Shown: piece after piece, positions 11,573-52,972 of the stretch | Layout: every line of letters begins with the position of its first letter | How positions within the stretch are numbered: position 1 is the stretch's first letter | NCBI GenBank assembly: GCA_008632985.1 | Contig: QPGO01000007.1 | Location: 1 to 64,000 of the forward strand | Direction of reading: 5' to 3' | DNA length: 64,000 bases | DNA from: Psammoneis japonica | Lineage: Eukaryota | Position numbers and translations under genes: made by a program | The notes under the pieces: model-generated | The model's input: only the letters and a program-made list of their open reading frames with translations | Told to the model about the DNA's origin: nothing | Databases searched by the model: none

Positions 11573-11764
11573 TATGATTGGTGGATCCTTCGTTAATGAT
11601 GAATTTTGATAAAGACAGCATGCCTTCTTCCTATCTTTTTTGGCACATTTCTCGAGTGCATCAGTTTAGATGAGTTGTTCCGGAGGAGAGTGACGCAACC
11701 GCGCCACTTCCAACTTGGATGGTATAGGTTGCGACTACCCAAGTGAGGAAGAGGACGAAGTTGA

Positions 11765-13025: not shown

Positions 13026-13523
13026 NNNNNNNNNNNNNNNNNNNNNNNNNNNNNNNNNNNNNNNNNNNNNNNNNNNNNNNNNNNNNNNNNNNNNNNNNNN
13101 NNNNNNNNNNNNNNNNNNNNNNNNNNNNNNNNNNNNNNNNNNNNNNNNNNNNNNNNNNNNNNNNNNNNNNNNNNNNNNNNNNNNNNNNNNNNNNNNNNNN
13201 NNNNNNNNNNNNNNNNNNNNNNNNNNNNNNNNNNNNNNNNNNNNNNNNNNNNNNNNNNNNNNNNNNNNNNNNNNNNNNNNNNNNNNNNNNNNNNNNNNNN
13301 NNNNNNNNNNNNNNNNNNNNNNNNNNNNNNNNNNNNNNNNNNNNNNNNNNNNNNNNNNNNNNNNNNNNNNNNNNNNNNNNNNNNNNNNNNNNNNNNNNNN
13401 NNNNNNNNNNNNNNNNNNNNNNNNNNNNNNNNNNNNNNNNNNNNNNNNNNNNNNNNNNNNNNNNNNNNNNNNNNNNNNNNNNNNNNNNNNNNNNNNNNNN
13501 NNNNNNNNNNNNNNNNNNNNNNN
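13026..13523. other. Assembly gap (N run)
   Basis: Run of n characters. Confidence 1.
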
Positions 13524-16761: not shown

Positions 16762-18921
16762 ATGAAGGGGGGCTCTCGTGCGACTGTTGATCGTGCAAAC
16801 TATCAATCGAACTCGCGTTCTGTTTCTGGTCGAAACAACGCTGACGATGGCATACAAGAACTTCACTCTCCATCACTTCATCACTATCATCGAAGCTCCG
16901 CTCGCTCTGGTGGGAGATTCGGCGAACGCGAAGATGACGTTAGACCCTCACCCCATGCTGCCTCTGCGAGACGGGTAATACATGATACAGATGAAACTAT
17001 GGACGACTTAGTCGCAGAGAAAATGAACATGCTAAACCGGAACGAGCGGCGATCCTCAAGTCGTCAAGGAATGGAGACAATGGACGATCTCGTGGCAGAG
17101 AAAATGGATATGATGCACAATTCGGGTACAAATGAACGAGGAGATCCCAAAAAGTTTGACATGGGTAACGATTCGAGAACAAGCATGCAAAAGACACATG
17201 TGTCCGCTCCGTTACATGCCATCACAAGTGACGTTGTCCATACGTCCGGAACGATGCAAGCACATGGTAGTGGCGGTGGCTCCATGATGGACAACCCGGA
17301 CGAAACAAAGAAGAGACGATTCCATAGCGCCGGCGGCACCAATCGTTCTTCGACCATGAGTGAGCGCGACGATGCTGCTAGGGAGAAACAAGGCCCTCGA
17401 ATGGCAGTCACCAACAGAGACATGGATTACGATGAGGAGGAAGGCACAATAGGAGATGACCCGCAACGCACTGGCGCTTATTTCATTAGCGGTACAGGTG
17501 ATGTTGTCACTCGTCAACGTGGTGTTCTAACGTCCCAACCTAGTGAGAACGACCACACAGTGGCGACCAAAAGAGCGCCCACAGCGGAAGTGACGCCTTT
17601 GGATAGCTCCAACGCATCAAAGAGTACTGCAGATGGAAAAGATGTGCCGTGGTACTGCAGTCGAAAGTTTAAATTGATTGCACTGATTGCGCTCATTGTT
17701 GGTGGTGCAGTTGGTGCTGCCGTTGGAATCACGTCGGGTGGCGGTGGTGGAGTCGACGAAGACGATGGAAACGGCGACCCTCCGGTGGATCCAGTTGATC
17801 CCGAAGAATCTGCTCTCGAAATAAGAAGAACGGCCATTCGCGCGTCCCTTCTTCCGGTATCTGGCGCAGATGCGCTTGATGATCAAGGCTCTCCCCAGAA
17901 CCTGGCCATGAATTGGCTTGTTTACAACGACACCTTAACTCCAGTGGGAAAGGATATCAGCGAGGAAGACTTGAGCAAGTTGATTCGACGATATTCACTC
18001 GCTGTGGTGTATTTTGCTACTGGGGGAGAGTCGTGGTTTAGAACCGACAACTGGTTGAATGTCGTTGAGGAGGAGTGCGAATGGGAGCACATGTCGTGTG
18101 AAGCCGGTGAAATAGTGTCATTTGATACGGGCACCATAGATAACAATGTGGCAGGAGCTATACCTCCAGAGATAGGGCAGCTCTCGTTTCTGCGTCAGTT
18201 GCTGTTGCCCAACAATCAGGTTTCTAGCTTGCCGTCCGAGATGGGGGATCTCAACAACTTGACCTCGTTAGATCTAAAGTTCAACGCCTTGGAAGGTCCC
18301 TTCCCTTCTGTGATCTACGAGTTGACATCACTAACAAAGCTCATTTTGGATGAGAATGGCCTTAACGGAACGATTTCAACGGCGATTGCTGCTCTTTCGG
18401 ACCTTGATTTCCTTTCTCTCCCTAGAAATAGTCTCACGGGAGTGTTGACTGTCGAGTTTCAGTCCCTCTCGGCTCTCACTACGCTGAACATTTTCAAAAA
18501 CTCATTTCAGGGCTCGATAAACGAAGTGTTTCGGGGTTTGACCAACCTAGACTTGTTACGAGCCGACAGTAACGAGTTGTCTGGTACCATATCAACAGAA
18601 ATCGGCTTTTTTACGAATTTAGGCGAGTTGAATCTTGGTGATAACAGAATTGAAAACTCGACGATACCGACGGAAATAGGAGAGCTTACAAAGTTGGTTG
18701 GTCTATTTTTGTTTCGAAACAACATTGTTGGTACAATCCCATCCGAGATGGGGAGGTTAAGAAGGCTTCAGACTCTGTTCATTGAGAATACAAACCTTGT
18801 GGGCTCCATTCCCTCAGAGTTATGCACTGTGTTTGAAACAGTTCCCGATTTCCAGTTGCGACTTTTCCCTTGCACTGTCGAGTGCAATTGCAGCGTCTGC
18901 GATCCGGAGTGCCAAGCATGA
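16762..18921 (+). CDS. Single-TM leucine-rich-repeat receptor-like protein (paralog 1)
   Basis: Disordered N-terminus, TM segment (LIALIALIVGGAVGAAVGI), SPQNLAMNWL / RYSLAVVYFATGG cap, plant-type LRRs (GTIPSEMGRL), C-terminal CxCxxC. Confidence 0.9.
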   Translation: MKGGSRATVDRANYQSNSRSVSGRNNADDGIQELHSPSLHHYHRSSARSGGRFGEREDDVRPSPHAASARRVIHDTDETMDDLVAEKMNMLNRNERRSSSRQGMETMDDLVAEKMDMMHNSGTNERGDPKKFDMGNDSRTSMQKTHVSAPLHAITSDVVHTSGTMQAHGSGGGSMMDNPDETKKRRFHSAGGTNRSSTMSERDDAAREKQGPRMAVTNRDMDYDEEEGTIGDDPQRTGAYFISGTGDVVTRQRGVLTSQPSENDHTVATKRAPTAEVTPLDSSNASKSTADGKDVPWYCSRKFKLIALIALIVGGAVGAAVGITSGGGGGVDEDDGNGDPPVDPVDPEESALEIRRTAIRASLLPVSGADALDDQGSPQNLAMNWLVYNDTLTPVGKDISEEDLSKLIRRYSLAVVYFATGGESWFRTDNWLNVVEEECEWEHMSCEAGEIVSFDTGTIDNNVAGAIPPEIGQLSFLRQLLLPNNQVSSLPSEMGDLNNLTSLDLKFNALEGPFPSVIYELTSLTKLILDENGLNGTISTAIAALSDLDFLSLPRNSLTGVLTVEFQSLSALTTLNIFKNSFQGSINEVFRGLTNLDLLRADSNELSGTISTEIGFFTNLGELNLGDNRIENSTIPTEIGELTKLVGLFLFRNNIVGTIPSEMGRLRRLQTLFIENTNLVGSIPSELCTVFETVPDFQLRLFPCTVECNCSVCDPECQA

Positions 18922-19445
18922 GTTTGCACGAGGAAGGACGGAGTTGTATGTATATGTTATTTGAAAGTTTTCGGATGAATTGATCAGTTCATACTGTACA
19001 CCTTTACTTGCTCCATGAACTTTTAAATAACGTGGATGTGAGAAAAGGGATGTGCCGGAGGCGTGCTGTCTCGGTTGTCCGCTACCGTAACTTCGGAAGC
19101 GACGTGCGGACGCAACCACTTTTCTGTTAACCTTAAAAACAGTACAGTATTTCATAAAGTAGTATTTTCTTTTGATGTCAATCCTCTTTTCCAGGTACTG
19201 CTCATTAATTGTACTGTAGGCTACACTAATCTACGGCGTGCTGTGTACTTGAAAGGATTCATTTTGGTGCAACGTTGTGTCTGAAATATGAAAGGGTTCG
19301 CCACAACAGGCGTTTCATTCACCAATATTCCAAAATACAAATAGATGTAGCCATTCTTGTCTATAAAACACGAGAATGAACCATAGTTACAGCTTACTAT
19401 GCTCTCTAGTAAAGAGCGTACTCATTTGGCAACTCGCGTCACGCA

Positions 19446-19946
19446 TCATAACGACTTGACGTCTTCGCCAACATGATCGTTGTTGCCCATAATATACAGA
19501 GGAGTAGCGATCAACGTCACGAATGGTACATTGAACGCAGCATGTTCCACTTCATCCGTCAGTAAACTAAAGCCCGTATCCAAGACAAACCATACTGCTG
19601 TGGAGGTTGCCAGTGCTCGACGCGCCAGGGCTCGAATCGAACCGTCGTTGCTTGCGGCAAGGCGAACCACAAACCACATTAAAGCCATCCAACCCACAAT
19701 GATGGACCCCAGTACTCCAAACGCAAATATAGCATAATCGACTCCGTCTGGGTCGAGATTGTGCGTGTTGGGGCCGAAACGAAGTGCATCAAACAGCGTC
19801 ATGGCAAAGACGCGGCCCGATAGCACCATTCCAAGCCCATAGACCGTAACAACCGCGATTACGGCGCGGAGAAAGGCGTGTGCTCTTAGATACTGGCGTG
19901 ATGGTGAAGATTGTTTGGGTGGCATTGTATATCCTATACCTAGCAT
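19446..19946 (-). CDS. Small multi-pass membrane protein of unknown function
   Basis: Intact 166-aa ORF with about four hydrophobic helices; a mutated paralog lies at 33490-34030. Confidence 0.75.
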   Translation of the reverse strand: MLGIGYTMPPKQSSPSRQYLRAHAFLRAVIAVVTVYGLGMVLSGRVFAMTLFDALRFGPNTHNLDPDGVDYAIFAFGVLGSIIVGWMALMWFVVRLAASNDGSIRALARRALATSTAVWFVLDTGFSLLTDEVEHAAFNVPFVTLIATPLYIMGNNDHVGEDVKSL

Positions 19947-20620
19947 GTGAGATGCCTACTGCATGGAATAGGGAGGGTTCATCGTCATCGTGCCTGCTCG
20001 GTTATTGCTCCTCTATGTTGTGTTGGTCCTCGCGTTGGAACTTCTTCGAATTCGAACGGTTGGATGGACGGACGGCTCTATGATTACCGTTCAATGAATT
20101 TTCCTCAGCTCTGTAGTTCAAAAAAGAAACTTGCACTTGTCGCTTGTCGCAGTCTGAGCGAGATCTGAGATCTTGCCTTTGTTGACCTTGCACCGCTGCT
20201 GGTAAAGCACTTTGCAAGCTACAGTATCGCAACCGGAACAACTATTCCATACGCCATCGCTGCATGATGCATGAGAGACCACAAACTGGCACGGTAGAGA
20301 GCATAGGGTATCTAGGGTATCCAATCTAAGGGGCGTGAGCATCGGTTGCCAATTACCAAAGTTATGGCTTAGGTTTGTTGACTACAGGAGGCTACACCAC
20401 CTTTGTCGGTGGAAGTGTCGGTGTGTTTGTAAATGTTCGATATTCTAACATTTAGAAGTTAGAAAAAGAGCCAGAGACAAAATCGCGAACGGCAATGCAT
20501 CTCTTCGTGCCTGAAGCCTGCCTCAAATTAACTCCAACACCGCAGCTCATGATGACAGCCGTCGTTACGAATAACCAGCTGAATTGCTCTTCGTAAATCG
20601 CAGTTCATGATGCCAAATCT

Positions 20621-23180
20621 TCAAGGCTGTGGCGGTGGCACGCAAGGTCCCAAGTCGTTCGGGTTGAGCTGTGTGTTTCCACCATTATCCATGCAGGAAG
20701 CGCCAGTTGCAGTAGGGTTAATGGCGACATGGGCGGGCTAATTGTGGAGGGGGCAAAGGAGGATATTGAGTGATTGAGAACTTATTTGTTGTTTCGAGGA
20801 ATATTCCTTATACTTACAATGTTGTTCGCAAAAGTGCTTCCCGAAATTGTGGTTGTTCCACCTTCAATGCGAATCGCCCCAATGCCAAAGATCTAAAGCG
20901 TCGTTTGGAGCAGCTCGGGAACGGTTAGGTTGATTTCCAGACAAGTGATAATGAAAAGTAAAGATTGACACACTCACAGATGGCGTGGAAGTGATGCCTT
21001 CGAAAACGGAATCGAAAATGTCCAATGTACCTGACAAAGATCTGAACCAAATAGCGCCTGCAATCTACCGGTGGTGGCGACAGTAAAAGGCAATGCATGA
21101 GATGATGCTTAGTGGGGAATGAAAGTCACGATATTGAAAATGGTTAGCGAGACTCACAAAGCCTTTGGTATCCTTGAACTCGCAGTCATTGACAGTCACC
21201 GTGGCTGCGCTCGTCCTCACAAGGATAGGCAGTGTCGTGCTCCCTATCTGTAAGGAGGGAAGGGTTTAAGGACATGTCACGGCGCATTAAAGTGAAACGT
21301 TTGACAGACGAAAAACTGCCAGGAAACTGAAGAGACCCTGGTTGATAGCATGTGCTAGACTTACATCACGGAAACAGGTGCTGACCAAGTCGACTTGTGA
21401 CGAGATACCAGCTGTTGTTGGATCTTGGCCGAAAATCATTGCGAATTCCTGTCCGCGTATCGCATTTTTCAGAATAGGCGCTGTAAGGGCCGATGATAGG
21501 CACGCGCGGGCGAGGGAAATACCATCAGCAGCGAGACTTACTAGATCCACAAATTCACAATTCCTGACGCTTACGGATGCAAAGTTCAGAGGTGATATAC
21601 GTGCGGCACCTGACTGCAATTCAAACAATTGAAAGACGGTATGAGTATGGACGGGAAACGGATGGAATGGTGAGCAAAACAATAATTCACGATTTCGGCA
21701 GTACTCCTTACTTCGCCGGGTACGCCACCGAATGCACAATTTTCAAAAGAGACGGTTGCATCTAACGCATCCTCTAAGACATTTAGAGCCCTCTGAGTTT
21801 GAGTGACGTACGAACGTGCCGAACAAGATACAAGGAGGTGAGTCACTTTTCAAAATCTAGCTACGGTACAATCGCAGTGTTGTTACTTACGTAACTTCTA
21901 CCCGCCTTGAACTCGATGCCCGTAAAGTTTGACTTGAAACTTGTTGTAGGATTGCCTCGATTATCACCGCTGACAAAAATGTCTTTGTTTACTGCCGCTG
22001 GGCCTTGTATGCTTGACGAATCCATAATGCAATCAATGCCCGCGCAACGAACATCAATGTTCTTGCCGAACAGCTTTACTGGAGTCGGCGGAGTGGATGA
22101 AGGGCCTGTAAAAACAATTGTGCTGCCGCTACACTGGCAAATAAGCGTTGGCTCAGCTGCGGAGACATCGGCAGCGCCCCCAATAGCCGTCACCAAGTCG
22201 ACAAGGTTATCAACACACGGCTGACCTAGACATTTGGTATCAGGTGCCGGGTCCACTATGCGCTTCGTGCAAGGTTTCCGGGTTGGTGCGGATGACGGTT
22301 CCGCCACTGTCGTTGTAGTAGGGACTGACGATGGGTTCAACGATGATGATGATGGCTTCGAACTTGGCGCGAGCGATGGTTCTGCTGAAGGTCCATAGCT
22401 TGGTGCTAATGATGATGATGGTGGGTTTGTTGGTGCGGATGACGGATCCGCTGTTGTTGTAGGGACTGACGATGGGTTCAACGATGATGATGATGGCTTC
22501 GAACTTGGCGCGAGCGATGGTTCTGCTGAAGGTATATAGCTTGGTGCTAATGATGATGAGGATGGGTTAGAACTTGGTGAGGGCACGAGTCCGCCACCCC
22601 CCTTTCCTTTGCCGTGCCCCTTGCTGGTGCTGCTGCCACTTCCACTTTCACCGGCACTTCGTGAGGGCACGAGTCCGCCACCCCCCTTTCCATTGCCGTG
22701 CCCCTTGCTGGTGCTACTACCACTTCCACCTTTACCAGCACTTGATGAAGGAGCGGGGCCGTCACCGTTTCCTTTGCCGTGCCCCTTACTGGCACTGCTG
22801 CCACTGCTGGTTGCTTCTAAAGCAGTGTTAATGGCGGTGACTGGTTGATGTGAATAGTCATCACTGCTGGCCTCGTTAACGATATAGAGTCCTCGGTTCT
22901 CGGTGCGTAGAGATCCGCGCCCTTTGAGAACTCGGTCAACTGGGCGCTGCTCAATCGATGTAGCCGTCATACTAAACTTCAGCCCAACTTTTTCTTTCGC
23001 CTTCGTCTGGACGAGGATAGCTCGTTCATTTCCTTGTTCTTTGGTTGTCGCGTCGCTGTGTTCTTGTGTTGACTCGTCGATGATGAGCAACGAAGGCAGC
23101 AAACGCTTGCCACTGAGAACAAGAGGGACGACGCAAATGAAGAAAACAATAAGAAGCAGGCGGAGAACGGGGCAGATCAT
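20621..23180 (-). CDS. Multi-exon secreted protein with KG/Ser-rich and PSxxP mucin-like repeats plus Cys/beta-rich domains
   Basis: Signal peptide, SKGHGKG repeats and PSSAP/PSLAP repeats in the large first exon. Several downstream small exons with GT..AG borders; last exon PAHVAINP...PPPQP* ends at 20621. Exon structure is approximate. Confidence 0.65.
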
Positions 23181-24017
23181 GATGCTTTCGCTTTGGTGAG
23201 ATGTAAGATAGAAGTTGTGTGCTTACTGCTTACGTTTGATTTGCAGCCCGCGAAAACTCCCGGAATTCATTTTGAGCACTGGATCGTAAACCGCAACGAA
23301 CGAATAAGATGATCGTCCTTTGAGAAGTTCAATTCAAATGCTTTCTAAGTTACATTTAATGGGCATAGAGAGTCAACCTCTGTTTCCCTAAATGAAATGT
23401 GGCGGGAAAACGACTGCGTGCCACCCGGCCCGGCAAGATTTCTGCTCGAAAATGCTTGCTGTTTACAGTGCAGCTAGCACCGTGCAACCCTCTCTCTAAA
23501 GTATGTAAAAGACAACACACATCTTTTCACGCCTTTCGATCGAGTTCTTCCATCTGTTTCGCAGTTTTTCTTCCCGTTTTTGGCGCGGAACTTGGGACAG
23601 GTTACACAGGTTCAATGACGGACAAGCGAAGCAACGCGCAAGGGAAGGATCGTCTGTCCACCATTGTGCCCAACGAATGGACTGCTTTGTGCATTTTGCC
23701 GGCACATGGAGCCTTGCATGACTGGCACAATGGCTCTTCATCTCACTTCTAATTGTTGGACTGTTGCCAGCAGACATTTGTCAAACATGGGCTGACACGT
23801 CTGCTGTAAAATGGTGGTGCTGCCTCCAGCAGCCAGCTGAGGGCTTTGTGCACTGCAGGTGATGAAAAACAGCAGATTGCCAAAAGCCGTGTTGTGGAAA
23901 TCATGAGACTGGTTCATTGTCTTGAAAAGTGGAGTCATGTGAGTGCACAACCACACAAATTTCCTGTTGGTTCACACTTTGGATCTTGCTGCACACAGCC
24001 AGTGCACACCTGCTGTC

Positions 24018-24108
24018 TGTGTGTGTCATGATGCCGGCAATGATGGCTTTTCAATGCACACACACTATGTGAGAATGCTTGCTGCTCAGATCTCTGTGTT
24101 GCTGAGCC
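24018..24108. repeat. Dispersed ~90-bp repeat; second copy at ~32915-32998
   Basis: gtgtgtcatgatgc.ggca.tgatggc...tgcacacac...cttgct.ctcagatctc...gctgagcc in both places. Confidence 0.75.
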
Positions 24109-24199
24109 TTGGAGTCCCCCTGTGCTCCAACAGCGTGTGCCACCACTGCTGTGAGCAGTGCGCACCTTGTGCCCTGGATGGTGCACGCCACGTGCTCCC

Positions 24200-27100
24200 C
24201 CATGACTCAACAAGCAGCGACATGTCCTTGCAGGAGACAGGGCACAATGTGCTGCAGATTGCACATGCCCATCAGTGCACCATTTTGTGTGAAGAGCACT
24301 GCTGTCATGTGCGTGGACAACTTTGGCTTGACTCGCTCACACAACAGCCAGCTCAACATTTTGTCTTTTTTTCTTGTTTCACCAGCGCCAGCTGCCCAGC
24401 AGTGCGCAAGTTTTGTGATCTCATGTCTGTTGTTCAAGTGCACCAGCATCTGCTTTCTGTGCACTTGGCAAGATGGGCAGCAGACAGAATCACATCACAT
24501 CTGAAGGCAGACCAATTGTGCGGGACTTGCGTGTGCAGTCATGTGTGCCACAGCTCTTGTGGCAAAGGCTGCAGCTGATGAAGCACTGTTCAATGGGCAA
24601 CTCTCATCCCAGCTCCACATCCTGTGCTGAAAATGAGTGCACCATGTTGACAAGCACCTGGAGAGTGTGCAGTCCACAACTGCAGATTTCTTTCTTCACT
24701 TGTGGGGTTCCAAGCAATGCCATGGTCATGTTTGATCATTTGACTGAGTTCAGCACCACAAACTCAGCTTTGCAGTCATGGGCCAGCACTTTGACGACCA
24801 CAAATGCCTGCATGGCCATGTTTTTGTTCCATGATGTTTGCCGCAACATCCGCTCCTCATTTGGCAGGTGCTTCCTTGATCTCAAACCAGCCCGGTGGCT
24901 GGGTTGACCATGGTCACTGCCCACAATTGCAAAGTGTCCTTTCCAAGCCCATGTTGTTTATTTTGGCAGGGGCCAATCATGTCAAGACATGGAGCTCCTC
25001 ATGGGATCAACTCAGCCATTTTTCTGGCAGTTTCCCACAATGCTGTGTGTTTGGCATTTTGTCTTCTGGCATTGTTCACACTTGACATGTGCACAGCATG
25101 TCACAGGAGCTCTCATGCTGGGCCAATGGAAGCACTGGGCAATGGAAATTTCTGTGCATGTTTTGTCAGGGTGGCACAGCTGCTTGTGATGCCACTCTGT
25201 TGGAGGCTTTCCCAACACCTCTGGTGAAACAATTTTGTCCTGACAGCACATCAGCTGTCATGATGCACCCCCACCCCCACCCCACAAAAGAACATGTGGG
25301 CAGAGTGCACACTGGATCACTGTGCATTTTGTGACAGGTGCTTGTCCTTCTGCCCTTCTTGTTGCATTTTCTTGAAGCTTGCTGGTGGAGCTGATCCATC
25401 CAAAGTGAATGCTTCATGCAAGGGATGTGTGTCTGGCATCTCTGCTGCTCTGAGGGATTGCACTCAGACTCCAAACTTGGCCCCTTGATGTGTTGCAACT
25501 CAGGGCCACATTCTTCACACAGCAACCACCAAATGCATGATGACTTTGGCAGTGAACACTTTGCACACATGAGATTGTTTTTTGTGACCAGCACATGCAT
25601 TTGTGCATTGGCCAAAGAGCATCACTTGAAATTCTGTCAAGATCTCCACAACAGCCAGCAAGCAATTCTCTCTCTATTGTTGTGCAGCTCAGCTGCACAC
25701 TGTGAAGCTTTCCACCACAAAAGGCAATGTTGGGTCCACTGTCCTGTGACATTGCTGCTCCAAGTTGACATGAGGAGGCATCAACATGGACCTCAAATGG
25801 CTTGTTGAAACCCGGACGCACCAATGAGACATCATCTGACAACACTTTCTCAATGGTCCCAAACACCTCATCTTCTCAACAATGGATGTTCACTTTCATT
25901 TAGAAGCCCCACTTGTGAATCATGCAAGTGGCGCCAGAATTTCAGAGCATTTTTTCCAAGTGTCATGACAGCAGCTCACTGCACCAACAAAACAATGCAG
26001 CTGTTGTTTGGTGGCAGACTTCTTTGCAATGCACTCACCTTGACTTTAGAAGGTGTCAGGTGTGCTTTGCTCTGATTGGCCAAACAGCTCAACAGTGCTC
26101 CAGCTGGGTCTGGCAAAAAAGCAATTTTCTTGCATCAACTTCAAGCCTGGCATTGCTCATGCACACTGGTGAAGCATGACCACCAGCTTTCCAGGTGGTC
26201 TTCATGAGCACCCTCAGCAATTGCAAGAAGATCATCTGAGTGAACATGCATGAATGACAAATCTTTGAATGGCTCTGACATCTTTTCCTGGAAAACATCC
26301 AGCAAATCACATGAGCCCACTGGAAGGACCTGCATTTTGCACTTTCCCCACCATGGGAAGACACACACATGTGCTGCTTTTGGCTGTCACTGTCAAGTTG
26401 AATGTGACAATTTGTTCTGCACTCAAATCCAACAATTTTGTCACACATGATGAAGCCCTTGAGCTGAAGTGGCATGTCCTGGACACAGGGAGCTGGACAA
26501 GGCACTCTTTTGGTTCTTTTGTCTCAAGCTCTCAGAACTTCTTGACACACTGCACCATTGAATCTTTTTTTGGTGTGGCAAACAATGGAGTGGCCCACTA
26601 CAAACGGTTGGCACATTGACAATTGGCACATTTGAGAGTGCCAATCTCACACAAGTGCGCCATCTCTTCATGCAGTGCAGATGGCTTCATGTGCCCTTGG
26701 GACTTTGTGCAGATGATTGTGTCCATGATGTGGCTTCTTGACACCCTCTCTTCAGCTGGGCATGGAGGGGATCCCCTTTCCATCCACCCAAGGGCTCAAG
26801 TTGGCTCAATGGCCTGAGAAGCTGTGCTTTCTAGCCACAATTTGGCCATCATGTTGCCCTCGCATCATCATGTCCTCAAGGCATGCCAGTGCAGCACACT
26901 GGGCACCCAGAATTTTCCAAGTTCTGTCACTTTCCAACAATGGAGGTTTTGGATCTTGAAGACAGAAGGAGGTTTCTGCTGCAGCTTCCACATCTCTCAT
27001 TGGCATCTTGCCAATGACCTGCAGCGTCAATGCCCTGAGGCTCCAATGTGTCTTGCCCAACAAGCATGCTGCATTTGCCTGACAATCCACTGTGCATGTG

Positions 27101-28500
27101 GCTGGACTTCATGTGTGATTTCTGCAGTTGTGGATGATTCTTGCAAAAGTGGAACTCAGCGGCACAATCATGTGCCATTTTGAAGCTGCTGACTGCTGCA
27201 CTCTCCAGTTCATGGTTTGGCCATCACATGACTCTGAAGCTGACTGCAGCACCTCACATCTGGCAGTGTTTTGCTGGCACTGCTGTCCAGCAGTGCCTTG
27301 GTTGCTTCGCCAGTCTTGCCTTTGCCATGCTTGGCACTTGCAGCCACAAACAAGAATGGTGTCAAATGAGCATGCTTGGTGCAAATTCATTGGATGGCTG
27401 GCCTGCAACGCAAGTGCAGTGACAGGACACATTGGTGCATTGAACCCATCTAACTCATGTCAGCCTGCTTCTCAGTCAGGTGCATTCATGATCCAAGTCA
27501 GCATCTGAGTTGCTTGGGAAGAGGTTGCGGAAACAACTAAATTCCTCCTTGCAAGCCTTGTGTTTGGCTTTGGGGCTTGAGCATGCTGCCTTCATCCTTG
27601 GCTTCAACAACCACATTTTGTGCTCATCCTTGTTGCATGCCTTCTGCACAGATGGGTCACTGCTGCTGTCTGATTGGGGTGTTTTGAGACACTTTACTTG
27701 ATGTTTCAAACTGCTGCATGTTTGAGGGCTTTCTCTGGACTCACAATCAATGGTCATCAAGGACTTTCTGTTCCATGGCACCACTTCCCAGGAACATTGG
27801 TGCTGCCTTCCTGCTCACCTTTGGAATGTTCAACACTTGCTCTGCATGCTCACAGAAAAAAAGATGAGTTAGACAATGCCACATGCCAAGGGGCTGCAAG
27901 ACTCCTTAGTGACCATTTCTTTCTGCCACATGTTGAGCACCCTTCAAGTGAGTCAACCAGCTCATCATCTGGCAATGACACAGGCACTGTGCACCATCGT
28001 CCTCCATCACAGGTGGAAACAGTGAACACAGCTGATGAGCTCAAAAGCCCCCATGATGCAACCATGAGTCTTCATGTCAAGCAGCTTGCAAGCACAATGT
28101 TGTTGATGATGCTTCTGCCACAGTGCCACCCAGCAAGGGAAGATGCTTTTGCCAACTTTTGTGAAACATGCCTTGAGCAACACATTGGTTTCCATGTTGT
28201 GTTTCTCAGCTTTGCTGTCAAATGCAGCCAAGGCATCACCTTTGAGCAACTGGCACACAAGCAAAATCTTCTCCGGACCTGCAGCGCTGTGTGGGAATGA
28301 TGGGTGCTCTTCACACACATGCCTGCGCAACATGTTTCTGCACTTGACAAGAAGAACAATGAACAACAACTGCAATTTTCAGGTTTGTGACAGCAGTTTC
28401 CATCAATGCACAATTTTTGCAAACATCAACTGTTCATTGTGTTCTGTCATTTGATTTGTGAACAATTTCACTGTGATTGCCTGTTTGAAGTTGCGCACCA
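24200..28500 (-). mobile_element. Heavily mutated Ty3/Gypsy LTR retrotransposon relic (gag-RT-RNaseH-integrase)
   Basis: RT remnants PWWGKCKMQVLPVG..DVFQEKM..VHSDDLL (from YxDD); RNaseH PFEVHVDASSCQLGAAMSQ..KLHSVQLSCTTIERELL; integrase-like LCHP and HDCKAEF. The order fits Gypsy; borders are approximate. Confidence 0.85.
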
Positions 28501-29409
28501 GCATTTTCTTTGCCGTGGCTGATGTTCACAGATGAAGGTTGCAACAGCATCAAATGTGCAGTGTCTCATTTCACAAATTTTGGTCTTGTTAATTTGGCTA
28601 GAATGCCTTCCATTTGGTCACCCACTGCCTGCATTGCAAGGTGTTTCTGCTGCATTTGTCTCTCTTTGTTTCATTGGACACTGCACAATGCATCTGCCAA
28701 CCCATTGTTTTGGCAACAATGGCACGCCCCTGCCACAATCTGCCAGGTGCTGATTGCTTGTCTGATGACAACAATGAACATGTTCTCCTTTGACATTTTC
28801 AAAAACATCCTCAGTGCTTTTCTTTCTTCCAGCTCATCCTCAACAATGTGCCTCTTTGTTTGCCTGAATGGATTTCAATGGATTTTTTCATGTGGCAGGA
28901 TGGGTGCAAAATTTTGTTACAAAATCAACCAACACAGTGACGTTGGTGGACAACAAGAGCACAACAGCAATGCTGTCTTCAAAATTGTGACAGAGGATGA
29001 GCAACAACAAAATGCTGCTCCTTGTTGCTTGGCAAGAAACTTTGGAAATGGCTTGAGCTGTGCCAGGTGGGGGTGAAAATGACACAGCAAGCTTCTGCAC
29101 CCTTGGTTGCATCAAGGCAAGTTGTGTTCTTGTCTCCTGCATCGTTGCCTCATGCGTTGCTCCCTGCATTTCATGCAGTGCCTCGGCACCATGGGCCGGC
29201 GCATCATTTTCTGTCTTGGTGCTGCTTTGCTCTTGCATCAGAGTTCATTGGCAGTGCCACTGATGGTGCAGCAGTGGCGCACATTGCCAGTTTGTGCTTG
29301 GACTCAGGCACTGGTGCTGTTGCTTTGGGAATGGCAAGGATGCACACTGACACCAAGTTGGCCTTTTTCATTTGGAAAGAATGTCCGGAAACAGCCAGTT
29401 GGGCACTGG

Positions 29410-30150
29410 GCACAAGGTGACAAGGATGGGCCACAACACTTCAAGACCAGCAACCTCACAATGCCCAACTGGCAGAGCTCTCAAAGTGTTGCCTGGGGTG
29501 CACCAAAGACCACCAATGCCCTCTGCCAGCAGTTGTCAGGTTGGTTGGTGCCCCACATGGGATCTTTGCACTCCAGAGTTGGGGAAGTCAAGCCTGCTGT
29601 GCCGTTGGCGGCACAAGGTGACATGGGGCCACAACACTTCAAGATCAGCAACCTCACAATGCCCAACCAGCACACAGCTCTCAAAGTGTCATCTGGGGTC
29701 CACCAAAGACCAGCACCAATGCCCTCTGCCAGCAGTTGTCAGGTTGGCTGGTGTCATCATGGAATCTTTGCACCCTGATGGAGTTGGGAAAGTCAAGTCT
29801 TCTGCTGCTGCTGGGGACAAGGTGTCCCAGGGCCACAACAACATCAACCTTGCAATGACAAACAACAGTTCTTGAAGTGTCACCTGGGGTCCACCAGACA
29901 CCACCACCAATGCCTTCAGCTTGCAGCTGTCAGCTTGGTTGGTGCCATCATTGGGTCTTTTTAGCGTGGAGTTTGGAAGCTCAAGTGTGCTGCTGTTGGG
30001 GAGAGAAGAGGTGAGACATGGGGCCACAATGCCACAAGATCAACAACATTGCAGCTGCCAACAACTGCTCTTTAAATGTTGCCTGTGGTCTGCTGCATGT
30101 TGCCAGCATCCTCAGCCCAGCTTGCAGCTGTTGGGTTGGTTGGCGCCACT
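29410..30150. repeat. Degenerate tandem array, ~200-bp unit, about 4 copies
   Basis: aaggtg...ggccacaacac...caacctcacaatg...ctggggt.cacca...gttgtcaggttgg recurs at ~29412, 29614, 29818 and 30010. Confidence 0.8.
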
Positions 30151-31254
30151 GTGCAACACAAACAAACTGCTCAGACCAGCACAAACAATGTGAAAATTTG
30201 TTCTTGACAACAAGAGCCAGTTGAGATCATGCATGAAAACTGAGGCACAAAACTTCTTAAAAAAAACAGATGCACTGCATGTGATTGAAGCACACAGTGT
30301 TGAGCACACACTGCTGCCAAACAACAAATGACAGCTCACAGCAAAAATGCCCCCCCAGCAATGAAGGAAACTTCAAAAATGAGTGTGACAAAAGGCTCTG
30401 AAAATGACAACTTGCAAAATGACATGGACAATGATTGCCCGGCCAGGTGGCTCATGGCTTGGCATCATGCCAAAATGCACGTCATTGCCACCACACAAAA
30501 CAGCATGAAAATCAGGGTGCTTGGGCCCCATCCTGTGTGCAGCAACAATTTGCAGGAAGGCACCAATGAAGCCAAGGACTGTGCACACTCAAACAAAGAA
30601 AAGCAATGAGAAAAGCAAGAGGCAAGAAGCATGGCACAAAAGCAGGCAGCTCTCAGGACAGTGCAAAAACTTCTTGTGCTTTTGCCTGTCCTTGATGCTC
30701 AGCAGACAAATTTGCACAAGTTTCGCCAGCAGGACATGCTGCACTGCAATGTTGCACCAAGGTGAGTGGAAGTGGCATCATTGTTGTTCAACTGAACATG
30801 CAAAACTCATGACTTCTTTGCTTTCTTCTGGCAGGCATTGCTGCAGCACTCCTTGCATGCTGAGTGACACACAGAGAAGCCAATGCTTGTTGAAAGACAA
30901 ATGACAGAACCGTGACACTGACTGGAACACAGATGCCAGCTTGAGCACAACACCATGCCAGCACAGCAAAGAACAAGAAGATGCCACACAGGAGACAGCA
31001 AAAGGAAATGGGAAGGGGAGTGAGCAGCAGTGAGCAAGAACACGGTGCAGCACAAAGCCAACATTGCCAGAAACCAACATTGCAAAATGTGCAAATCAAA
31101 TTGTCAGCAGCATGCATCCAATGAAAAGAGAGTTGCAATGAGATCAACTTGCATGGTTGTTCTCAGAAATGAGTCAGCACGTCAGCAGTTTGTCGCACAT
31201 GCACTGTTGCCAAGATCAAAAACTGACAAGCCACACACCATGTGTCACTCCTTG

Positions 31255-31700
31255 TGCAATATACAGCTACTAATAAGAGTTAATGTATCACGGCGACGTG
31301 TTACAGCCTTTAAATGTCACAAAGGGCGTGACAAAAATAACCTTTTGTCTGCATGCATACTGCATTATGAATTCATAGCGGAGTGGTACATCGTAACCAC
31401 TAGGCAGGAGGCCAGGGGTTCGAAACCCGAGTGGGAGTTGTCTGCAGCAACGTTGATCATTGTCGAACGCGTAAAACTCTGTGCAGTTCTGTATGTTCCT
31501 TCGTACGTACCCACACTGTTCCGCCAAAACCGTGCAGTGTCAGTACACGTTAGTAAAGAGCCGTATGGACGCGTGATACATGGGGAGGAGTGCAATATAC
31601 AGCTACTAATAAGAGTTAATGTATCACGGCGACGTGTTACAGCCTTTAAATGTCACAAAGGGCGTGACAAAAATAACCTTTTGTCTGCATGCATGCTGCA
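31255..31700 (+). mobile_element. Intact young TRIM (miniature LTR retrotransposon), 446 bp
   Basis: 110-bp LTRs at 31255-31364 and 31591-31700 (TGCA...TGCA) differing at one base; polypurine tract GGGGAGGAG right before the 3' LTR; 4-bp target-site duplication CTTG (31251-31254 and 31701-31704). Confidence 0.92.
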
Positions 31701-33489
31701 CTTGTTGTTTCCCGCTTTGCCAATTGGCTCAAATGTTGACACAACAACATTTGCAATGGCTGCATTGCAAACATGTGTGTGCAAAATCCATCTTGTCAAG
31801 ATCTCACACATTCTTTTGACACCAAATTTCATTGAGTCTCTTGCCCCCCACTTTGCCAATTTGCTTGATTGTCAAAAATGCTTTTGAGGATGGATCATCA
31901 ACTTGCAGGCAGTTTTGTGGGAACTTGCAACTTTTGTAAAAAGATGGACCATGTGTCATCCAAAAGCAAATTTCAGTGACAGGTTGAACTTTGTCTGTTC
32001 ACAACACATCGCAGAATGCACACCAAGATGGTTGCGACCATGTGTGATGTCCAGCTCACAGACTGCAGAAATGTCTGTCAAGTGCCAGTTGTTGTTGGTG
32101 GGGAACATTGTGGCTTGTCCAGCAGAAGTGGCACAGTTTTGGCAAACAAAACAGATCATTGAACCTGACAACTGTGCCAAATCTGACAATTGGTGTTTGA
32201 AGGTGTTGACAAGTGCAGTTCACACACAGGTCTGATGGACCTGATGGGGGGATTGGACACACTCACAGGTGTTTGGGGTGCTTGGATGCATTTGCAAAAT
32301 GATGCTGGCAAAGTTTGGGAAGATGGCAAAATTGCAGTCCATTTAAAAACAATGCTGCCAACCAACAATCCATCCTTGACCACACCAGTCAAAGAGGTCA
32401 GAGCTTGTTGAGAGCGCAGGTTTCTTATCAAAAGCAAAGAATGTGGCTCCAAACGAGAGCCACAACATTGTCCAGATGCACCCACAGAAAAGCACGGAAC
32501 ACTCAGTTCACACATTGCACTGTCAGCATCTGCTGGTGTGCTGGCAAGTTCCTGAGTTCACACATCTGACATTCTCTCTTCAACAGCACCTTCTTCTCTG
32601 GACATTTTGGCTGAATGAGCAGCTCAGCCGCCCACTTCTTTGTGGTTGGTTTGATTTGTCATTGGCTTGACCAACATCACGGCCATCACACACTTGCGGG
32701 AGTGACGTTTTTGTGCCTTGTGCATCACCAGGCAATGAAAAGAGGCAGATCATCAAAAGTCATGTTGTAGAAATGGAGGGACCCATTTGTTGTCCAGAAA
32801 ACAGGAGGAATCAGGTGAATTCCCTGTTGGTTTGCATTTTGCATCATGTGCAGCTGGGCATGCATGAGTTTCTCTGACCCCATTTGCAAGTCATCATGCA
32901 CACACATGTGCATTGTGTGTGTCATGATGCTGGCATTGATGGCCTGTCAAAGTGCACACACCAAGCACTTGCTCCTCAGATCTCCAAGTCGCTGAGCCAC
33001 AGACCCCTCCCGCACTTCCATGGTGGTGCAGGCTGCTTGAGCAACAGGAGGCTGCCACTGCTGTGGTGCACGTGCCTTGCCCCCTGGGACATGCACAGTC
33101 TGGCCATGTTGCCAGTGCAGCACATGCTGCATCAAGCTGCAGGTGTGGCCAAGCTCAGCCAGCTGCTGGGTGGCCAGTGCCGCTGATGCCAGGCCAAGCC
33201 AGGGCTCTCAACTTGCGCGCTGGTTTGCCAAAGGCAATCCAGGCACCTGGGGTTTGTGGGGCCCCAAGTGAAAGCTGCTGGCCAAAAGCACATGCTCTCT
33301 CAGATGTTGGCACAGTGGCAAAGATTGTTTGGGTGGCATTTCCTGCACCATGCACACTTCGTTCATCAGCAAAACAATCTAAAATGCAGACAGATGCAAG
33401 GCAAATGCTGGATGATGCCTGTCTTGTCTGTCAAACCATGGGAACAAACCACAGTTTAGAGCATGCTCACTGGGCAACTTGCATCATTC

Positions 33490-34030
33490 ATTGTGGTTGT
33501 GACTTGGCGTCTTCACCAGCATGATTGTTGATGCCCATGACATGCAGAGGAGCAGCGATCAACATGTCTTGACATGGAATGGTGTGGTGTTGAGTGCAGC
33601 TTGTTCCATGATTTCACCCATCAGCAAACTGAAGCCCACATCCAAGGCAAACCACACTGCTGTGGAGGTTGCCAGTGATTGATGCACAAGGGCTTGTGAA
33701 CAACTCTGCTTGATGCAAGATGCACCATGAACCACGTTGAAGTCATCCAGCCGACGACAATGTTGGGCCACCCCAGCACACTCTCCAAACGCAAGTGTGC
33801 GGCACAATCGACTCCATCTGGGTGAAGATTGTGGGTGTTGGGGCCAAAACAAAGTGCATCAAACAGTGTCATGGCAAAGATGCAGCCCGACAGCACACCA
33901 CTCCAAGACTGTGGACCGCAACAACTGTGATTGAGGCACGGAGAAAGGCGGGTGGTGCTCTGAGGTGCTGGTGGCGCGTGATGGTGAAGATTGTTTGGGT
34001 GGCATTGCACATCCTGAACCTGGCATGTGA
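33490..34030 (-). pseudogene. Hypermutated pseudogene copy of the 19446-19946 membrane-protein gene
   Basis: Collinear with 19446-19946 (flanking homology spans ~33355-34400 vs ~19310-20300); TA dinucleotides replaced; frameshifts present. Confidence 0.92.
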
Positions 34031-34443
34031 GGTGCCTGCTGCATGGATTATGGTTCAAGGTTCATCGTCATCGTGCTTCTCGGTCGCTCCTCGGTTGTGT
34101 TGGTCATCGCGTTGGAACTGTTGGGGAACTTCTTTGAATTTCCAAATTCGGACGGACGCATGGGCGGACTGTATGTTCAATGAATTTTCTTCAGCTTTGC
34201 AGTTCAAAAATGAAACTTGCACTCGTCGGTGTCTGAGATGCCCATGGCGGTGTCGAACGTTATCTTCTATGATACATCTCTTGCCTTTGTCGACCTTGGA
34301 CCGCTGGCAAAGCAATTTGCAAGTTACAGTATCACAACGGGAACAACTAATAATCAAAACGTCATCACTGCATGACGCACCAACTGGCACAGTAGAGAGC
34401 ATTTCACAAACAGCAGACAGCAAATCTTTATGCGACAAGAAAA

Positions 34444-36810
34444 ATGAAGAACACTGGCAGAGAAGAGAAAGAAACTAGCTTGCGTAGTAGCGACCATCAC
34501 GTCGCTTCTTTGAACGAAGATACACCCTCTGATGCGGCTAGTACTGCGCATAATCAAACTCATCGTGCTTCTCATCGAAGCATGACGGACGATGGCATTC
34601 AAGAACTGCGCTCACCGAGTTTGCGAAAGAGAGAGACAGTTGCACTGGATGCGGGAGACTCCTCGTCTAGCCAAACAATTGAAGAAAAGCCTCATCAAAG
34701 TGCCACCCGGTCGAGTGGGAGGTTTGGTGAAGGCGAAGATGATGTTTACATTCAGCCCACACTTCGACAGGTCTCTGGGCGACAAGCAAAACACGAAACT
34801 GCGGAAACAACGGAGGATCTAGTCTCAGAGAAAACGGACATGATGGGCAAGAGTGGGGGCCAAAGAAGCCCCCCTACAGATGAAACGGCGGACACAATGG
34901 ACGATGTCGTAGCAGAGAAAAAGGATACGCTGAGCAAGAACGTGAAATTACCGCCGCCCATTAAATTGGAGGCTGCGGAAACACTAGACCATGCAGTAGC
35001 CGAGGCAGAAATGGATATGATGAACACGTCCGATGGCGAAGAACAAGAAGATACAAACAAGGTGGAAACAAGCAAGATTTCAAAGCAACACATGAAGAAA
35101 GCGCGTGCTTCAAGTCCCTCAATAGTTGCCAAAACTGGTGCAGATTCCGAGCACGGCGCAATGCAAGCGAGTGCAAGTGCTTCCGCAGGAGTTGACGAAG
35201 GAGTGAAAACAAGGAAGAGACGATTTTTTCGCGGCACGACCAACCGCGCTTCGTCAGCGTGTACGCCAGGCAAAGCTTCGAGGAAACAGAGACGCTTTCG
35301 AGGCTTTGTCGCCTCCAGAGACGCAGGTGTGACGGATGATGATGCCGTCAGCGGTGACAACGACGAAGAAGCAGGACAAGTCAATCCGATTGCCGGTGCA
35401 TATTACGTGAGTGCTGCCGGTGAAGTGATCACTCGACAACGGGGAGTCTTGACCTCGCACCCAACCGAGAATGAGCGTGAATTGGCAGGGATTACGGCGG
35501 AAGTGACACGTAGCTACAACTCCGACACCAATTCTTTGGAGAAAGGGCAAATCTCATGGTACTGTACGAGAAAGTTCAAATTGATTGCAGTGGCTACCCT
35601 GGTGATTGCGGCTGCGGTTGCCGTTGCAGTCGGTGTTACTACAGCGGGTGGTGGTGGTGGTGGTGGTGGCACGGTAGCTAGCGAGGCCGAAGAATCTGAG
35701 TTCGAAACGAGACGAGCTGTTATTCGTGCGACTCTCCTTCCTATTTCTGGTCAAGAGGCGCTGGATGAGCCAGGCTCACCCCAGAACCGTGCGATGAACT
35801 GGGTCGCGTTCAATGACACCTCGACTCCTGTGGGTGAAGATATTACAGAGGAAGAGTTGAGCATATTGATTCGGCGATATTCACTAGCTGTTGTGTTTTT
35901 TGCTACTGAAGGAGAGTCATGGTTCAGAAGCGATAATTGGTTGAATGCCGGTGTGGAGGAATGCGAATGGGAACACATATCATGTCAAGGCGGAGAAATT
36001 GTGTCGTTCGATACGGGCACAAGAGAGAACAATGTTGCAGGGGATATACCGCCAGAGATAGGGCAGCTTTCGTTTTTGCGTGAGTTGCTGTTGCCCTACA
36101 ATCTGATTACTGGACTGCCGTCCGAGTTGGACACCCTCAACGATTTGACCTCGTTAAATCTAAAATTCAACGCCTTGGCGGGTCCCTTCCCTTCTGTGAT
36201 TTATGAGTTGACGTCATTACAAGAGCTCACGTTGGACGAGAATGGGCTTAGCGGAACGATTTCAACGGCGATTGCTGCTCTTTCAGAGCTTGAAATATTT
36301 GCACTTGCTAGCAACAGTCTCACTGGTTTGCTGACTGTCGAGTTTCAGTCACTGGCGGCCCTTTCGGAGCTGGATTTATTCAGCAATTCTTTTCAGGGCG
36401 AGGTAAACGATGTGCTTCGAGGCTTGACAAAGCTTGCGTACGTCAGGATGGACAGCAACGAGTTGTCCGGTACAATACCGACAGAACTCGGCATGTTCAC
36501 GAACTTGGTCGAATTGAATTTTGGCGACAACAGAATTGAAAATTCTACGATTCCTACAGAATTAGGGATGCTCACTGATCTAGAAGGTATTTTCCTGTTT
36601 CGGAACAACATTGTCGGTACGATTCCGTCTGAACTGGGAAGGTTGATTGGACTCAAGTCTCTCTTCATTGAGGACACAAACCTGGTGGGCTCTATCCCCC
36701 CGGAGCTATGCTCTGTGTTTGAAACGGTTCCCAATTTCCAAGTGCGACTCTTCCCCACTTGTAATGTCGAGTGCAGTTGCCGTGTCTGCGATCCAGAGTG
36801 CGACGTGTGA
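34444..36810 (+). CDS. Single-TM leucine-rich-repeat receptor-like protein (paralog 2)
   Basis: Same architecture as 16762-18921 with clearly alignable LRR region (e.g. IPPEIGQLSFLR, GDNRIENSTIPTE, CxCxVCDPEC). Confidence 0.9.
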   Translation: MKNTGREEKETSLRSSDHHVASLNEDTPSDAASTAHNQTHRASHRSMTDDGIQELRSPSLRKRETVALDAGDSSSSQTIEEKPHQSATRSSGRFGEGEDDVYIQPTLRQVSGRQAKHETAETTEDLVSEKTDMMGKSGGQRSPPTDETADTMDDVVAEKKDTLSKNVKLPPPIKLEAAETLDHAVAEAEMDMMNTSDGEEQEDTNKVETSKISKQHMKKARASSPSIVAKTGADSEHGAMQASASASAGVDEGVKTRKRRFFRGTTNRASSACTPGKASRKQRRFRGFVASRDAGVTDDDAVSGDNDEEAGQVNPIAGAYYVSAAGEVITRQRGVLTSHPTENERELAGITAEVTRSYNSDTNSLEKGQISWYCTRKFKLIAVATLVIAAAVAVAVGVTTAGGGGGGGGTVASEAEESEFETRRAVIRATLLPISGQEALDEPGSPQNRAMNWVAFNDTSTPVGEDITEEELSILIRRYSLAVVFFATEGESWFRSDNWLNAGVEECEWEHISCQGGEIVSFDTGTRENNVAGDIPPEIGQLSFLRELLLPYNLITGLPSELDTLNDLTSLNLKFNALAGPFPSVIYELTSLQELTLDENGLSGTISTAIAALSELEIFALASNSLTGLLTVEFQSLAALSELDLFSNSFQGEVNDVLRGLTKLAYVRMDSNELSGTIPTELGMFTNLVELNFGDNRIENSTIPTELGMLTDLEGIFLFRNNIVGTIPSELGRLIGLKSLFIEDTNLVGSIPPELCSVFETVPNFQVRLFPTCNVECSCRVCDPECDV

Positions 36811-37792
36811 TCGTTCACCATGAAAGACTGCCGTGTTTGGTTTAACATAGTCATGCACTGTGTTTGAAACTGTTCTCGATTTCAAAGTATTGCCTTTGAA
36901 ACGGTTCTCGATTTCAAAGTATTGCCACTCTCACCTACATGCAATCTCGATGGCAGTTGGACCGTCTGCGATCCGGAGTGCGAAGAACGAGGATGAGTTT
37001 GTTTTCTGTTCGTGGCACTGGAATGAACGAACAATCATCAGTGCATCCTACACGGGGTTGCTAAATAGATGTAGAGCATAGGAATACGAATTTAGATATT
37101 CTTTGGGCTACTGGAGTAGTAAATTGTTACATTTCCTTAGGTCTTCTGTCTTTCCCAATTTCGAGAAACGGGAGTGCGGCTAGCAAAGCATTGAGACTCG
37201 TCTTTTGCACGTGCTACAGTGCGTTGGCGAATCAAGCCCTGTTTTTTAAAATAGCTAGTGCACTAAAATGGCTACCATGGTTGCAACCTGGAACTTATCA
37301 CGAAGGCGGTCGATGGGATGGGAAGCTGTAGGGCCCTATAGCAAGGAGATACCTTAGAGTCGAGTTACTTCTGTGGTTGCCATAGTTAGTTGTCTGATAG
37401 ACTCCTCTCTCTACTCTCTACTCTAGCTACTTCGATCTAGTAGCTCTACTCTAGCTAGAGCTCTCTCTAGCTAGAGTAGCTACAGTAGAGAGAGAGAGCT
37501 GTACTCTCTACTCTAGTAGTACGGTAGAAGCATCATGACAAAAGAGGATTTTTGCGGAGCACTGGGCAAGCACTGCGGGTACCGGTAGACTAGGGCCCTA
37601 CGGTGTATCTTGATCTGCCGTACCGAAGAAATTCGTGGCCCGCACCGCACGCACGCACCTCGCGCGCGCGAAACTGGAAACACGACCGACGACAAGCGAG
37701 ACAACGCAATAGAGTTCGAGCAACTTCTTTGTGATTGCTGCCATTGACAAGGACGCGTAGCATACTCTTGATTCAGACATAGACCTATAAAT

Positions 37793-52268: not shown

Positions 52269-52972
52269 TGACCTGCCTGCCTGCCTGTGATGGGTGTGAG
52301 CAGCACTCGTTATTTTGCTTCCGAGTCGTCGTGTGTGATTGATTCGCCGAAATCGTAAAGAGATTATCATTGTATGGACAATACCGACACCTACTTACTA
52401 CAGACCGGAGAACGGACGAACTGCTCGCCAGTACAATGACGATTTTGGTTCCAGTCGCTCGGTCCTAATTTCTACTGCTAGAAACTAACTTCGTACACAG
52501 CTAGGTAGGTGTGGACACCATTTATACGTCGTAGGTGGTCTCTGCTTATCTACTGCACCGGAATGGTTCGACAATACCTCCACCGGCCCTGCCCGGGCTA
52601 GAGTTGTTCGTAGCTCTGTTGAAACCACGAGAGCCGAATCTGCGAGTGCTAGACTAGTTGCGTCAAGGTGAGGCAGTAAACATGGTGTTGTTGGTTCATC
52701 ATAAGTTTCTTTTTGCGATTCAAACACCAGGCGAACGTCACGAATACGACTGGATTTTCGATTTTGTTCATCGCGAGGTGACTGCAAGTCAAGGGCGACC
52801 TTCTGATGACGGGAGCAAGATGCAAAGGAGGTGTTACACAAAGCGCTACTCCACTGTGGGTCGAGCTGTCTTATCCTGGTTCAGGTCTCATCAGACGGTG
52901 TGCACTATCAAATATTTTTTGCCATACGTAGATCTCAATGAAAAACGATATCTACAGTAAGCAAATGCAAGC

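Follow-up and report, generated by a model that had tools for sequence, protein, structure and literature searches.

Results

The window analyzed here is the first 64,000 nucleotides (positions 1 to 64,000, forward strand) of contig QPGO01000007.1 in the genome assembly of the diatom Psammoneis japonica (GCA_008632985.1), and it contains two blocks of sequence, called D1 and D2, from which the dinucleotide TA has almost disappeared. The right end of D1 falls inside a duplicated segment: one copy of a small membrane-protein gene (copy A) lies outside the blocks, the other (copy B) lies within D1, and a duplicated leucine-rich repeat (LRR) gene adjoins the block. The features that carry the analysis are as follows:

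23507-34048, no strand: block D1, a 10.5-kb TA-depleted domain with a narrower CG-depleted part, from about 23700/24550 to 33735
56345-63267, no strand: block D2, a second TA-depleted domain, CG depleted only at ~56440-59300 and partly to 61190
19446-19946, minus strand: copy A, an intact open reading frame (ORF) for a 166-amino-acid membrane protein, the "before" state; duplicate aligned over 19344-20305
33411-34048, minus strand: copy B, a frameshifted, TA-free pseudogene copy, the "after" state, with its ORF broken into pieces
34037-34049, no strand: right edge of D1, from the last converted TA (34037) to the first retained TA (34049)
34049-34403, no strand: rest of the duplicated segment, an upstream/intergenic region common to both copies, not hypermutated
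34444-36810, plus strand: LRR_B, the duplicated LRR gene adjoining D1, untouched
16762-18921, plus strand: LRR_A, the partner of LRR_B, untouched
61374-61608, plus strand: a second "after" copy, in D2, with its unmutated partner at 52588-52856 in normal sequence

A 500-bp profile placed the blocks at ~23.5-34.05 kb and ~56.4-63.3 kb, where TA and CG were nearly gone and TG plus CA had approximately doubled. The core of D1 (8,647 bp) held 23 TAs (observed-to-expected ratio, o/e, 0.04) and 60 CGs (o/e 0.12), together with 1,026 TGs (o/e 1.94) and 1,096 CAs (o/e 1.99). Across the blocks TA o/e was 0.04-0.07, compared with 0.59 in 42,353 bp of background, where CG o/e was 1.02. The remaining twelve dinucleotides changed little between block and background.

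Copy A and copy B form a natural before-and-after pair. The alignment joins 19344-20305 around copy A to 33411-34403 around copy B, and while the gene of copy A is one intact ORF, several reading frames are needed for copy B. Left of 34050, 111 of 600 aligned bases differed, and the differences were concentrated by context: 32 of 67 TA-context sites had changed (47.8%, including 27 transitions), as had 35 of 86 CG-context sites (40.7%, including 28 transitions), compared with 44 of 447 remaining sites (9.8%; Fisher's test against the remaining sites, p=1.6e-12 for TA and p=4.7e-11 for CG). When the 33 aligned TAs of A were followed into B, 15 were TG, 12 were CA, 4 were something else, and 2 were nominally kept, one of which is interrupted by an inserted base and the other of which is the boundary TA at 34049. 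The 638 bases at 33411-34048 contain 1 TA. An earlier note on this DNA, made by reading the letters, had claimed that copy B lost essentially every TA and that substitutions were enriched at TA sites; the alignment bears it out, including the four example substitutions that it quoted. Conversion of CG to TG or CA alongside TA, as it had also claimed, was found at 26 of the 43 aligned CGs of A (14 TG and 12 CA), with 11 kept and 6 otherwise altered.

The converted TAs of copy B each became TG or CA and never CG. Along the copy, 53 TA and CG conversions fell into 31 runs of like outcome where 27.3 were expected, and neither processive nor strand-coherent tracts were apparent. TG and CA outcomes are interspersed, and both strands were thus hit site by site.

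The 166-amino-acid protein had 21 homologs in public data (E 2.8e-59 to 6e-11), and comparison with Pfam and a protein atlas returned no family. Conserved eukaryotic relatives are 38-67% identical, and more distant relatives reside on GC-rich, apparently bacterial metagenome contigs. We note that another, short fragment from the 5' end of the gene lies deeper in D1 (33290-33355, minus strand) and shares a 20-base identical stretch with copy B. Aligned over a longer range, 32776-33355, this putative third occurrence of the gene scored 104.5 against a shuffled maximum of 87, and it was convincing only over ~60 nt at 33290-33355, the rest being not above shuffled controls.

Which state came first was decided with proteins. 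A metagenome locus of the gene family (L001) was too distant to serve as an outgroup at the DNA level (64% amino acid identity), and polarity therefore rests on an alignment to the 18 best of the 21 protein homologs, the three weakest (P0019-P0021) being left out. Between the two copies, 73 codons differ: 24 of the differences are synonymous and 49 are nonsynonymous. At the 49 nonsynonymous codons, the outgroups favored the residue of A 38 times and that of B 4 times, with 7 ties, and among codons with a TA change the corresponding counts were 13, 1, and 3. All five Tyr codons of copy A are TAT, and they are CAC, CAT, or TGT (His/Cys) in copy B; at columns 19, 36, 71, and 151, where B has His or Cys, Tyr was present in 17/17, 16/17, 18/18, and 11/18 outgroups, respectively. 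Tyr can be encoded only as TAY, and TA is therefore ancestral in the Tyr-conserved columns. Invariant Arg105 (CGA) and Arg109 (CGT) are CAA and CAT in B. As far as protein sequences can tell, we conclude that TA is ancestral and TG/CA derived in copy B and that the polarity is settled. The direction given in the earlier note thus stood up to an outgroup comparison that might have found TG/CA to be ancestral. Among 37 metagenome loci of the gene family, 36 were bacterial-looking or of unrelated composition, and no TA-free window was found in any of the 37. A third duplicated pair, both copies of which lie in D2, was tried as a test of polarity and rejected: it had 6 TG/CA discordances among ~80 sites, and so few discordances mean that it was mostly duplicated after mutation and is uninformative on polarity.

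The depletion might instead be an artefact of base calling or assembly at modified bases, or the blocks might be foreign DNA poor in TA and CG from the outset. Heavily modified DNA can give systematic consensus errors. Contigs of run X1, however, matched 22662-34459 with 0 differing letters, at a depth per contig of 31-38 over the block, similar to that of the left flank. X1 may be the assembly's own sample, a point in favor of error, and the match thus excludes assembly noise and is not independent proof. In run X2, both flanks were covered and 23.5-34.0 kb was covered only on a young repeat (described below); the uncovered part was not counted as evidence. Moreover, copy B also has frameshifts and 9.8% ordinary divergence, and independent per-position errors would not yield clean TG or CA and never CG. 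Foreign composition fits poorly with copy B, since the host gene that it duplicates had TA ancestrally. We regard artefact and foreign composition, in either form, as extremely improbable.

How TA loss relates to CG loss can be seen at the margins of the blocks. At the left of D1, TA was lost from 23507 and CG was still dense until about 23700, and at the right, CG density was normal from about 33735 and TA was missing up to 34048. Indeed, TA loss was wider than CG loss at every edge where both could be placed, and the D2 stretch 61195-63260 had a TA o/e of 0.07 but a CG o/e of 0.68. We conclude that TA loss and CG loss are two separable processes and not the single effect that the earlier note had taken them to be. 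The CG part is most simply, and probably, the usual decay of methylated CpG. CG-to-TG/CA transitions like those of 5-methylcytosine-driven decay are present (26/43 in copy B; CG o/e 0.12 in the D1 core), they are concentrated in transposon blocks as in the methylated transposons of vertebrates and plants, and diatom transposons are cytosine methylated through DNMT5a (PMC9998398). The TA part requires its own cause; unlike methylated-CpG decay, it extends beyond the loss of CG and is present without it in 61195-63260. We consider it likely that the two blocks underwent region-limited, homology-independent hypermutation of TpA to TpG or CpA, with separate CpG decay on top.

An alternative dispenses with a dedicated enzyme: a TpA modification in silent chromatin, for example, 5-hydroxymethyluracil (5hmU) or N6-methyladenine, might mispair or decay as 5-methylcytosine does at CpG. 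Maintenance modification uses palindromic steps, and TA and CG are two such steps; both decay in the same blocks, and tract-free hits made site by site on both strands fit slow chemistry. Dinoflagellate 5hmU, moreover, prefers TpA. Spontaneous adenine deamination, however, is much slower than deamination of 5-methylcytosine, and TA loss both extends beyond CG loss and is complete in places that retain CG. Finally, a process of the same kind in the chlorarachniophyte Bigelowiella natans affected only some lines, according to the preprint that describes it, suggesting regulation (Mettrop et al., bioRxiv 10.64898/2026.01.13.699255, 2026 preprint). We think that decay of a modified TpA is unlikely to account for the blocks.

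The right edge of D1 is abrupt. The earlier note had the effect fading past ~34.05 kb; instead, conversion stopped between 34037 and 34049, 11-23 bp upstream of the former start codon of copy B. The divergently oriented LRR_B starts about 395 bp farther on, at 34444. To the right of the edge (34049-34403), 6 TAs were kept, 2 were CA, and 1 was AA, and 12 of 17 CGs were kept. On its left side, where dense TA ends at 23506, D1 begins 326 bp upstream of an outward-pointing ORF that starts at 23180, and the left edge of D2 follows a stop codon (56103) by about 240 bp. From these positions relative to ORFs, the blocks fill the space between neighboring genes, as a silent-chromatin domain bounded by active promoters would.

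Right beside the edge of D1, at 34054, X1 carried a variant lacking 3 bases (depth 30.7 of 69.1), and it had many half-depth variants along LRR_B (34676-36933), which together look like two haplotypes. X1 contigs over D1 had about half the summed depth of LRR_B.

The duplicates outside the blocks are untouched, as the earlier note had stated. Copy A has retained its TAs. Alignment of LRR_A with LRR_B over 1,908 bases is symmetric between the two genes, with 17 TA-to-TG/CA changes in each direction and 24 TAs kept. In the second pair, 6 of 9 TAs of 52588-52856 were CA or TG in 61374-61608, and 11 of 16 CGs were kept. Within the blocks were also found remains of mobile elements and one young insertion:

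25417-25875, minus strand: RNase H relic of a long terminal repeat (LTR) retrotransposon, in D1 (RT_RNaseH_2, E=1.3e-11)
62338-62868, minus strand: DDE_Tnp_4 (Harbinger-type) transposase relic, in the TA-poor, CG-kept part of D2 (E=2.8e-7)
31255-31700, plus strand: young 446-bp element with terminal direct repeats and TG..CA ends, inserted in D1, not hypermutated

Among stop-free pieces of 50 or more amino acids, the Pfam scan behind these assignments covered 132 of 139 in D1 (7 at or beyond 33503, in copy B, were left out), and it covered the longest 12 of 105 pieces in D2. Compared with 150 matches, the RNase H relic had lost 2/2 conserved Tyr columns (to Arg-CGT and Cys-TGC). Compared with 17 of 20 homologs, the three weakest being dropped, the DDE_Tnp_4 relic had lost 3/3 conserved Tyr columns (to His, Arg, and His) and kept 5/7 conserved Arg; Tyr made up 0.6% of its residues versus 4.0% in the homologs, and His made up 7.3% versus 3.9%. 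The sequences hit thus include selfish DNA, represented by the RT_RNaseH_2 and DDE_Tnp_4 relics, and one host gene copy. D1 also contains a stretch with weak similarity to the xanthine/uracil permease family (28523-28750, plus strand; E=1.7e-4, 20.9 bits against a curated cut-off of 27), which may be what remains of a further host gene engulfed by D1.

The young element is the exception to the composition of D1. It has 111-bp repeats at 31254-31364 and 31590-31700, which differ by one base (TA versus TG), it is flanked by a 4-bp CTTG duplication, and it contains 35 TAs and 24 CGs, each at an o/e of 1.06. Its summed contig depth in X1 was 43,374 and 32,049 in two bins versus about 35 nearby, a figure that is not a copy number and that points to a very abundant family. 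Of nine variants listed among contigs of the family, seven were T>C or A>G at TA sites. An abundant repeat standing unmutated inside D1 argues against a copy-number trigger, and the element fits a slow or episodic process that is probably still running. The interior of the element contains a T-loop-like word, and comparison for likeness to tRNA or Rfam gave no match.

Homology between repeats could nonetheless have triggered mutation, as in the repeat-induced point mutation (RIP) of fungi, if the transposons were mutated while repeated and the process leaked a few hundred bases into copy B. RIP leaks into flanking unique DNA in Neurospora, a route that the earlier note left out of account. Transposon relics do lie inside the blocks, parts of D1 (24.5-25.0 and 29.5-30.0 kb) have a summed X1 depth of 487-860 made up of many similar contigs, and copies of the high-depth repeat family vary at TA sites. 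Partner A and both LRR duplicates, however, are untouched, conversion is complete up to a sharp edge with no decay, the repeat of highest depth keeps a TA o/e of 1.06 within D1, and the direction is reversed, since RIP creates TpA. Moreover, the larger target in B. natans, a nucleocytoplasmic large DNA virus (NCLDV) region, is reported to be confirmed single-copy and silent (10.64898/2026.01.13.699255). We find a RIP-like origin distinctly improbable. The contigs of copy B are at flank-like depth and its partners are untouched, although contig depth is not the same as copy number and need not reflect the number of copies at the time of mutation. The earlier note's view that targeting did not follow homology pairing fits the untouched partners, the edge inside the duplicated segment, the depth of copy B, and the TA-intact repeat.

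Discussion

How region-limited hypermutation of TpA would have produced the blocks can be put simply. TpA would change to TpG or CpA, that is, A to G on one or the other strand, until almost no TA remained, with the mutation confined to two silent, transposon-derived blocks of a diatom chromosome. A second process, probably decay of methylated CpG to TpG or CpA, would act on a narrower part of the same blocks, and because both processes end in TG or CA, TG and CA are doubled. D1 would end in the promoter region common to copy B and its active neighbor LRR_B, and copy B, lying in D1 up to its start codon, would have been converted like the transposons. Silent chromatin may define the target, as in the earlier note's proposal of a chromatin domain spreading from transposons. 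As proposed for B. natans, the chemistry may be enzymatic adenine deamination in TpA by an ADAT2/TadA-like enzyme; ADAR and ADAT-type enzymes prefer U or T before the edited A, as noted in the B. natans preprint (10.64898/2026.01.13.699255).

Only one matching report was found, that of TpA hypermutation in B. natans, and a literature search that had subscription journals and bioRxiv supplements outside its reach returned no report of TpA hypermutation in diatoms. Mutation accumulation in the diatom P. tricornutum named CG, CC, and TG as mutagenic contexts and not TA, in the accessible part of that article (PMC6604790). According to the B. natans preprint, 231 of 302 mutations in mutation-accumulation lines fell in integrated giant-virus and virophage regions, at a rate of about 6e-7 per site per generation, and all but one of the 231 were A to G or T to C, on TpA. 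The B. natans genome also contains 124 TpA-poor, CpA+TpG-rich clusters, DDE and reverse-transcriptase domains are overrepresented among its TpA-depleted coding sequences, and the authors propose an ADAT2-like DNA adenine deaminase (10.64898/2026.01.13.699255). The diatom blocks resemble that case in the change itself, TpA to TpG or CpA on both strands, in its confinement to silent or foreign DNA beside normal sequence, and in its lasting trace, TpA-poor and CpA+TpG-rich stretches with DDE- and reverse-transcriptase-type relics. The two differ in host, a stramenopile as opposed to a chlorarachniophyte, and in target, transposon relics and a host gene copy here and giant-virus and virophage inserts there. 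Moreover, depletion is near total in the diatom, CpG is also lost, and a sharp edge is mapped at a promoter, whereas in B. natans the de novo rate was measured and the diatom case is known from its sequence trace alone.

Other systems that mutate mobile DNA resemble the diatom blocks in part. Like fungal RIP, the change inactivates transposons permanently by mutation, shifts dinucleotides over whole blocks, and can harm neighboring genes. RIP, however, changes C to T at CpA, raising TpA, and requires duplicated sequence of which it hits both copies, whereas the diatom blocks have TpA erased, copy A still has its TAs, and TA changes are balanced between the two LRR genes. RIP differs also in its effect on coding sequence: the TpA change inactivates by missense (Tyr to His or Cys) and not by new TAA or TAG stops. 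APOBEC3 and ADAR editing likewise directs deaminase-type transitions against mobile elements, but the substrates of those enzymes are single-stranded or RNA intermediates, and their edits form strand-coherent tracts. There are none in copy B, and the diatom sequences hit in place include the relic of a DNA transposon and a host gene copied by segmental duplication.

Several points weigh against hypermutation of this kind. The second pair and the Tyr columns provide small counts, and two TA-to-CA changes lie just outside the edge, at 34200 and 34308. The young repeat in D1 is unmutated, such that the process would have to be slow, episodic, or stopped. Modification of T (5hmU-like) followed by mispairing would yield the same pattern. 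Finally, depletion in the B. natans regions is far weaker (Rho TpA 0.45, compared with an o/e of 0.04 here), and the preprint makes no mention of CpG, diatoms, or heterochromatin; a mechanism common to both organisms is thus something that we infer (10.64898/2026.01.13.699255).

The diatom case is another lineage for a process that, as far as the literature search reached, has been described only in B. natans, and to that case it adds near-total depletion, separable CpG loss, a sharp promoter edge, and collateral loss of a host gene. If the reading is correct, TpA hypermutation would be widespread at least within the stramenopile-alveolate-rhizarian (SAR) supergroup, its trace would be separable from CpG methylation decay and have base-pair-sharp limits at active promoters, and the process would cost the host neighboring genes. 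The trace is readable from the genome itself, as TA o/e near 0 with TG and CA doubled, and standard RIP indices would miss the signature because it runs in the opposite direction. There are genetically tractable species among diatoms, and the enzyme and the targeting signal thus become testable. We speculate, and only tentatively, that diatoms and chlorarachniophytes share an old chromatin-directed defense by DNA adenine deamination, in its chemistry the mirror image of fungal RIP, one that removes TpA from silenced mobile DNA, that is independent of copy number and of cytosine methylation and that erodes host genes caught in a silent block; we would sooner expect this broader idea to fail than to hold.

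Other features of the window

The window contains long intron-free ORFs for LRR-Roc-TIR, UVB_sens, two LRR receptor-like, MFS transporter, and allantoicase proteins. For the allantoicase, the best named homologs all come from pennate diatoms (Asterionellopsis, Amphora, Seminavis, Nitzschia, and Pseudo-nitzschia), at 53-65% identity. The LRR-Roc-TIR protein is a single ORF of 1,266 amino acids (400-4200, plus strand) with LRR, Roc/Ras GTPase, and TIR domains by Pfam, an architecture like that of immune receptors. Tandem copies of ~410 bp, 95% identical, lie at 11764-13025 and about 13000-13500 and adjoin a 498-N assembly gap. TA-poor, GC-rich tandem repeats at 8.7-9.9 kb are coding low-complexity repeats and are distinct from the TA-depleted blocks.

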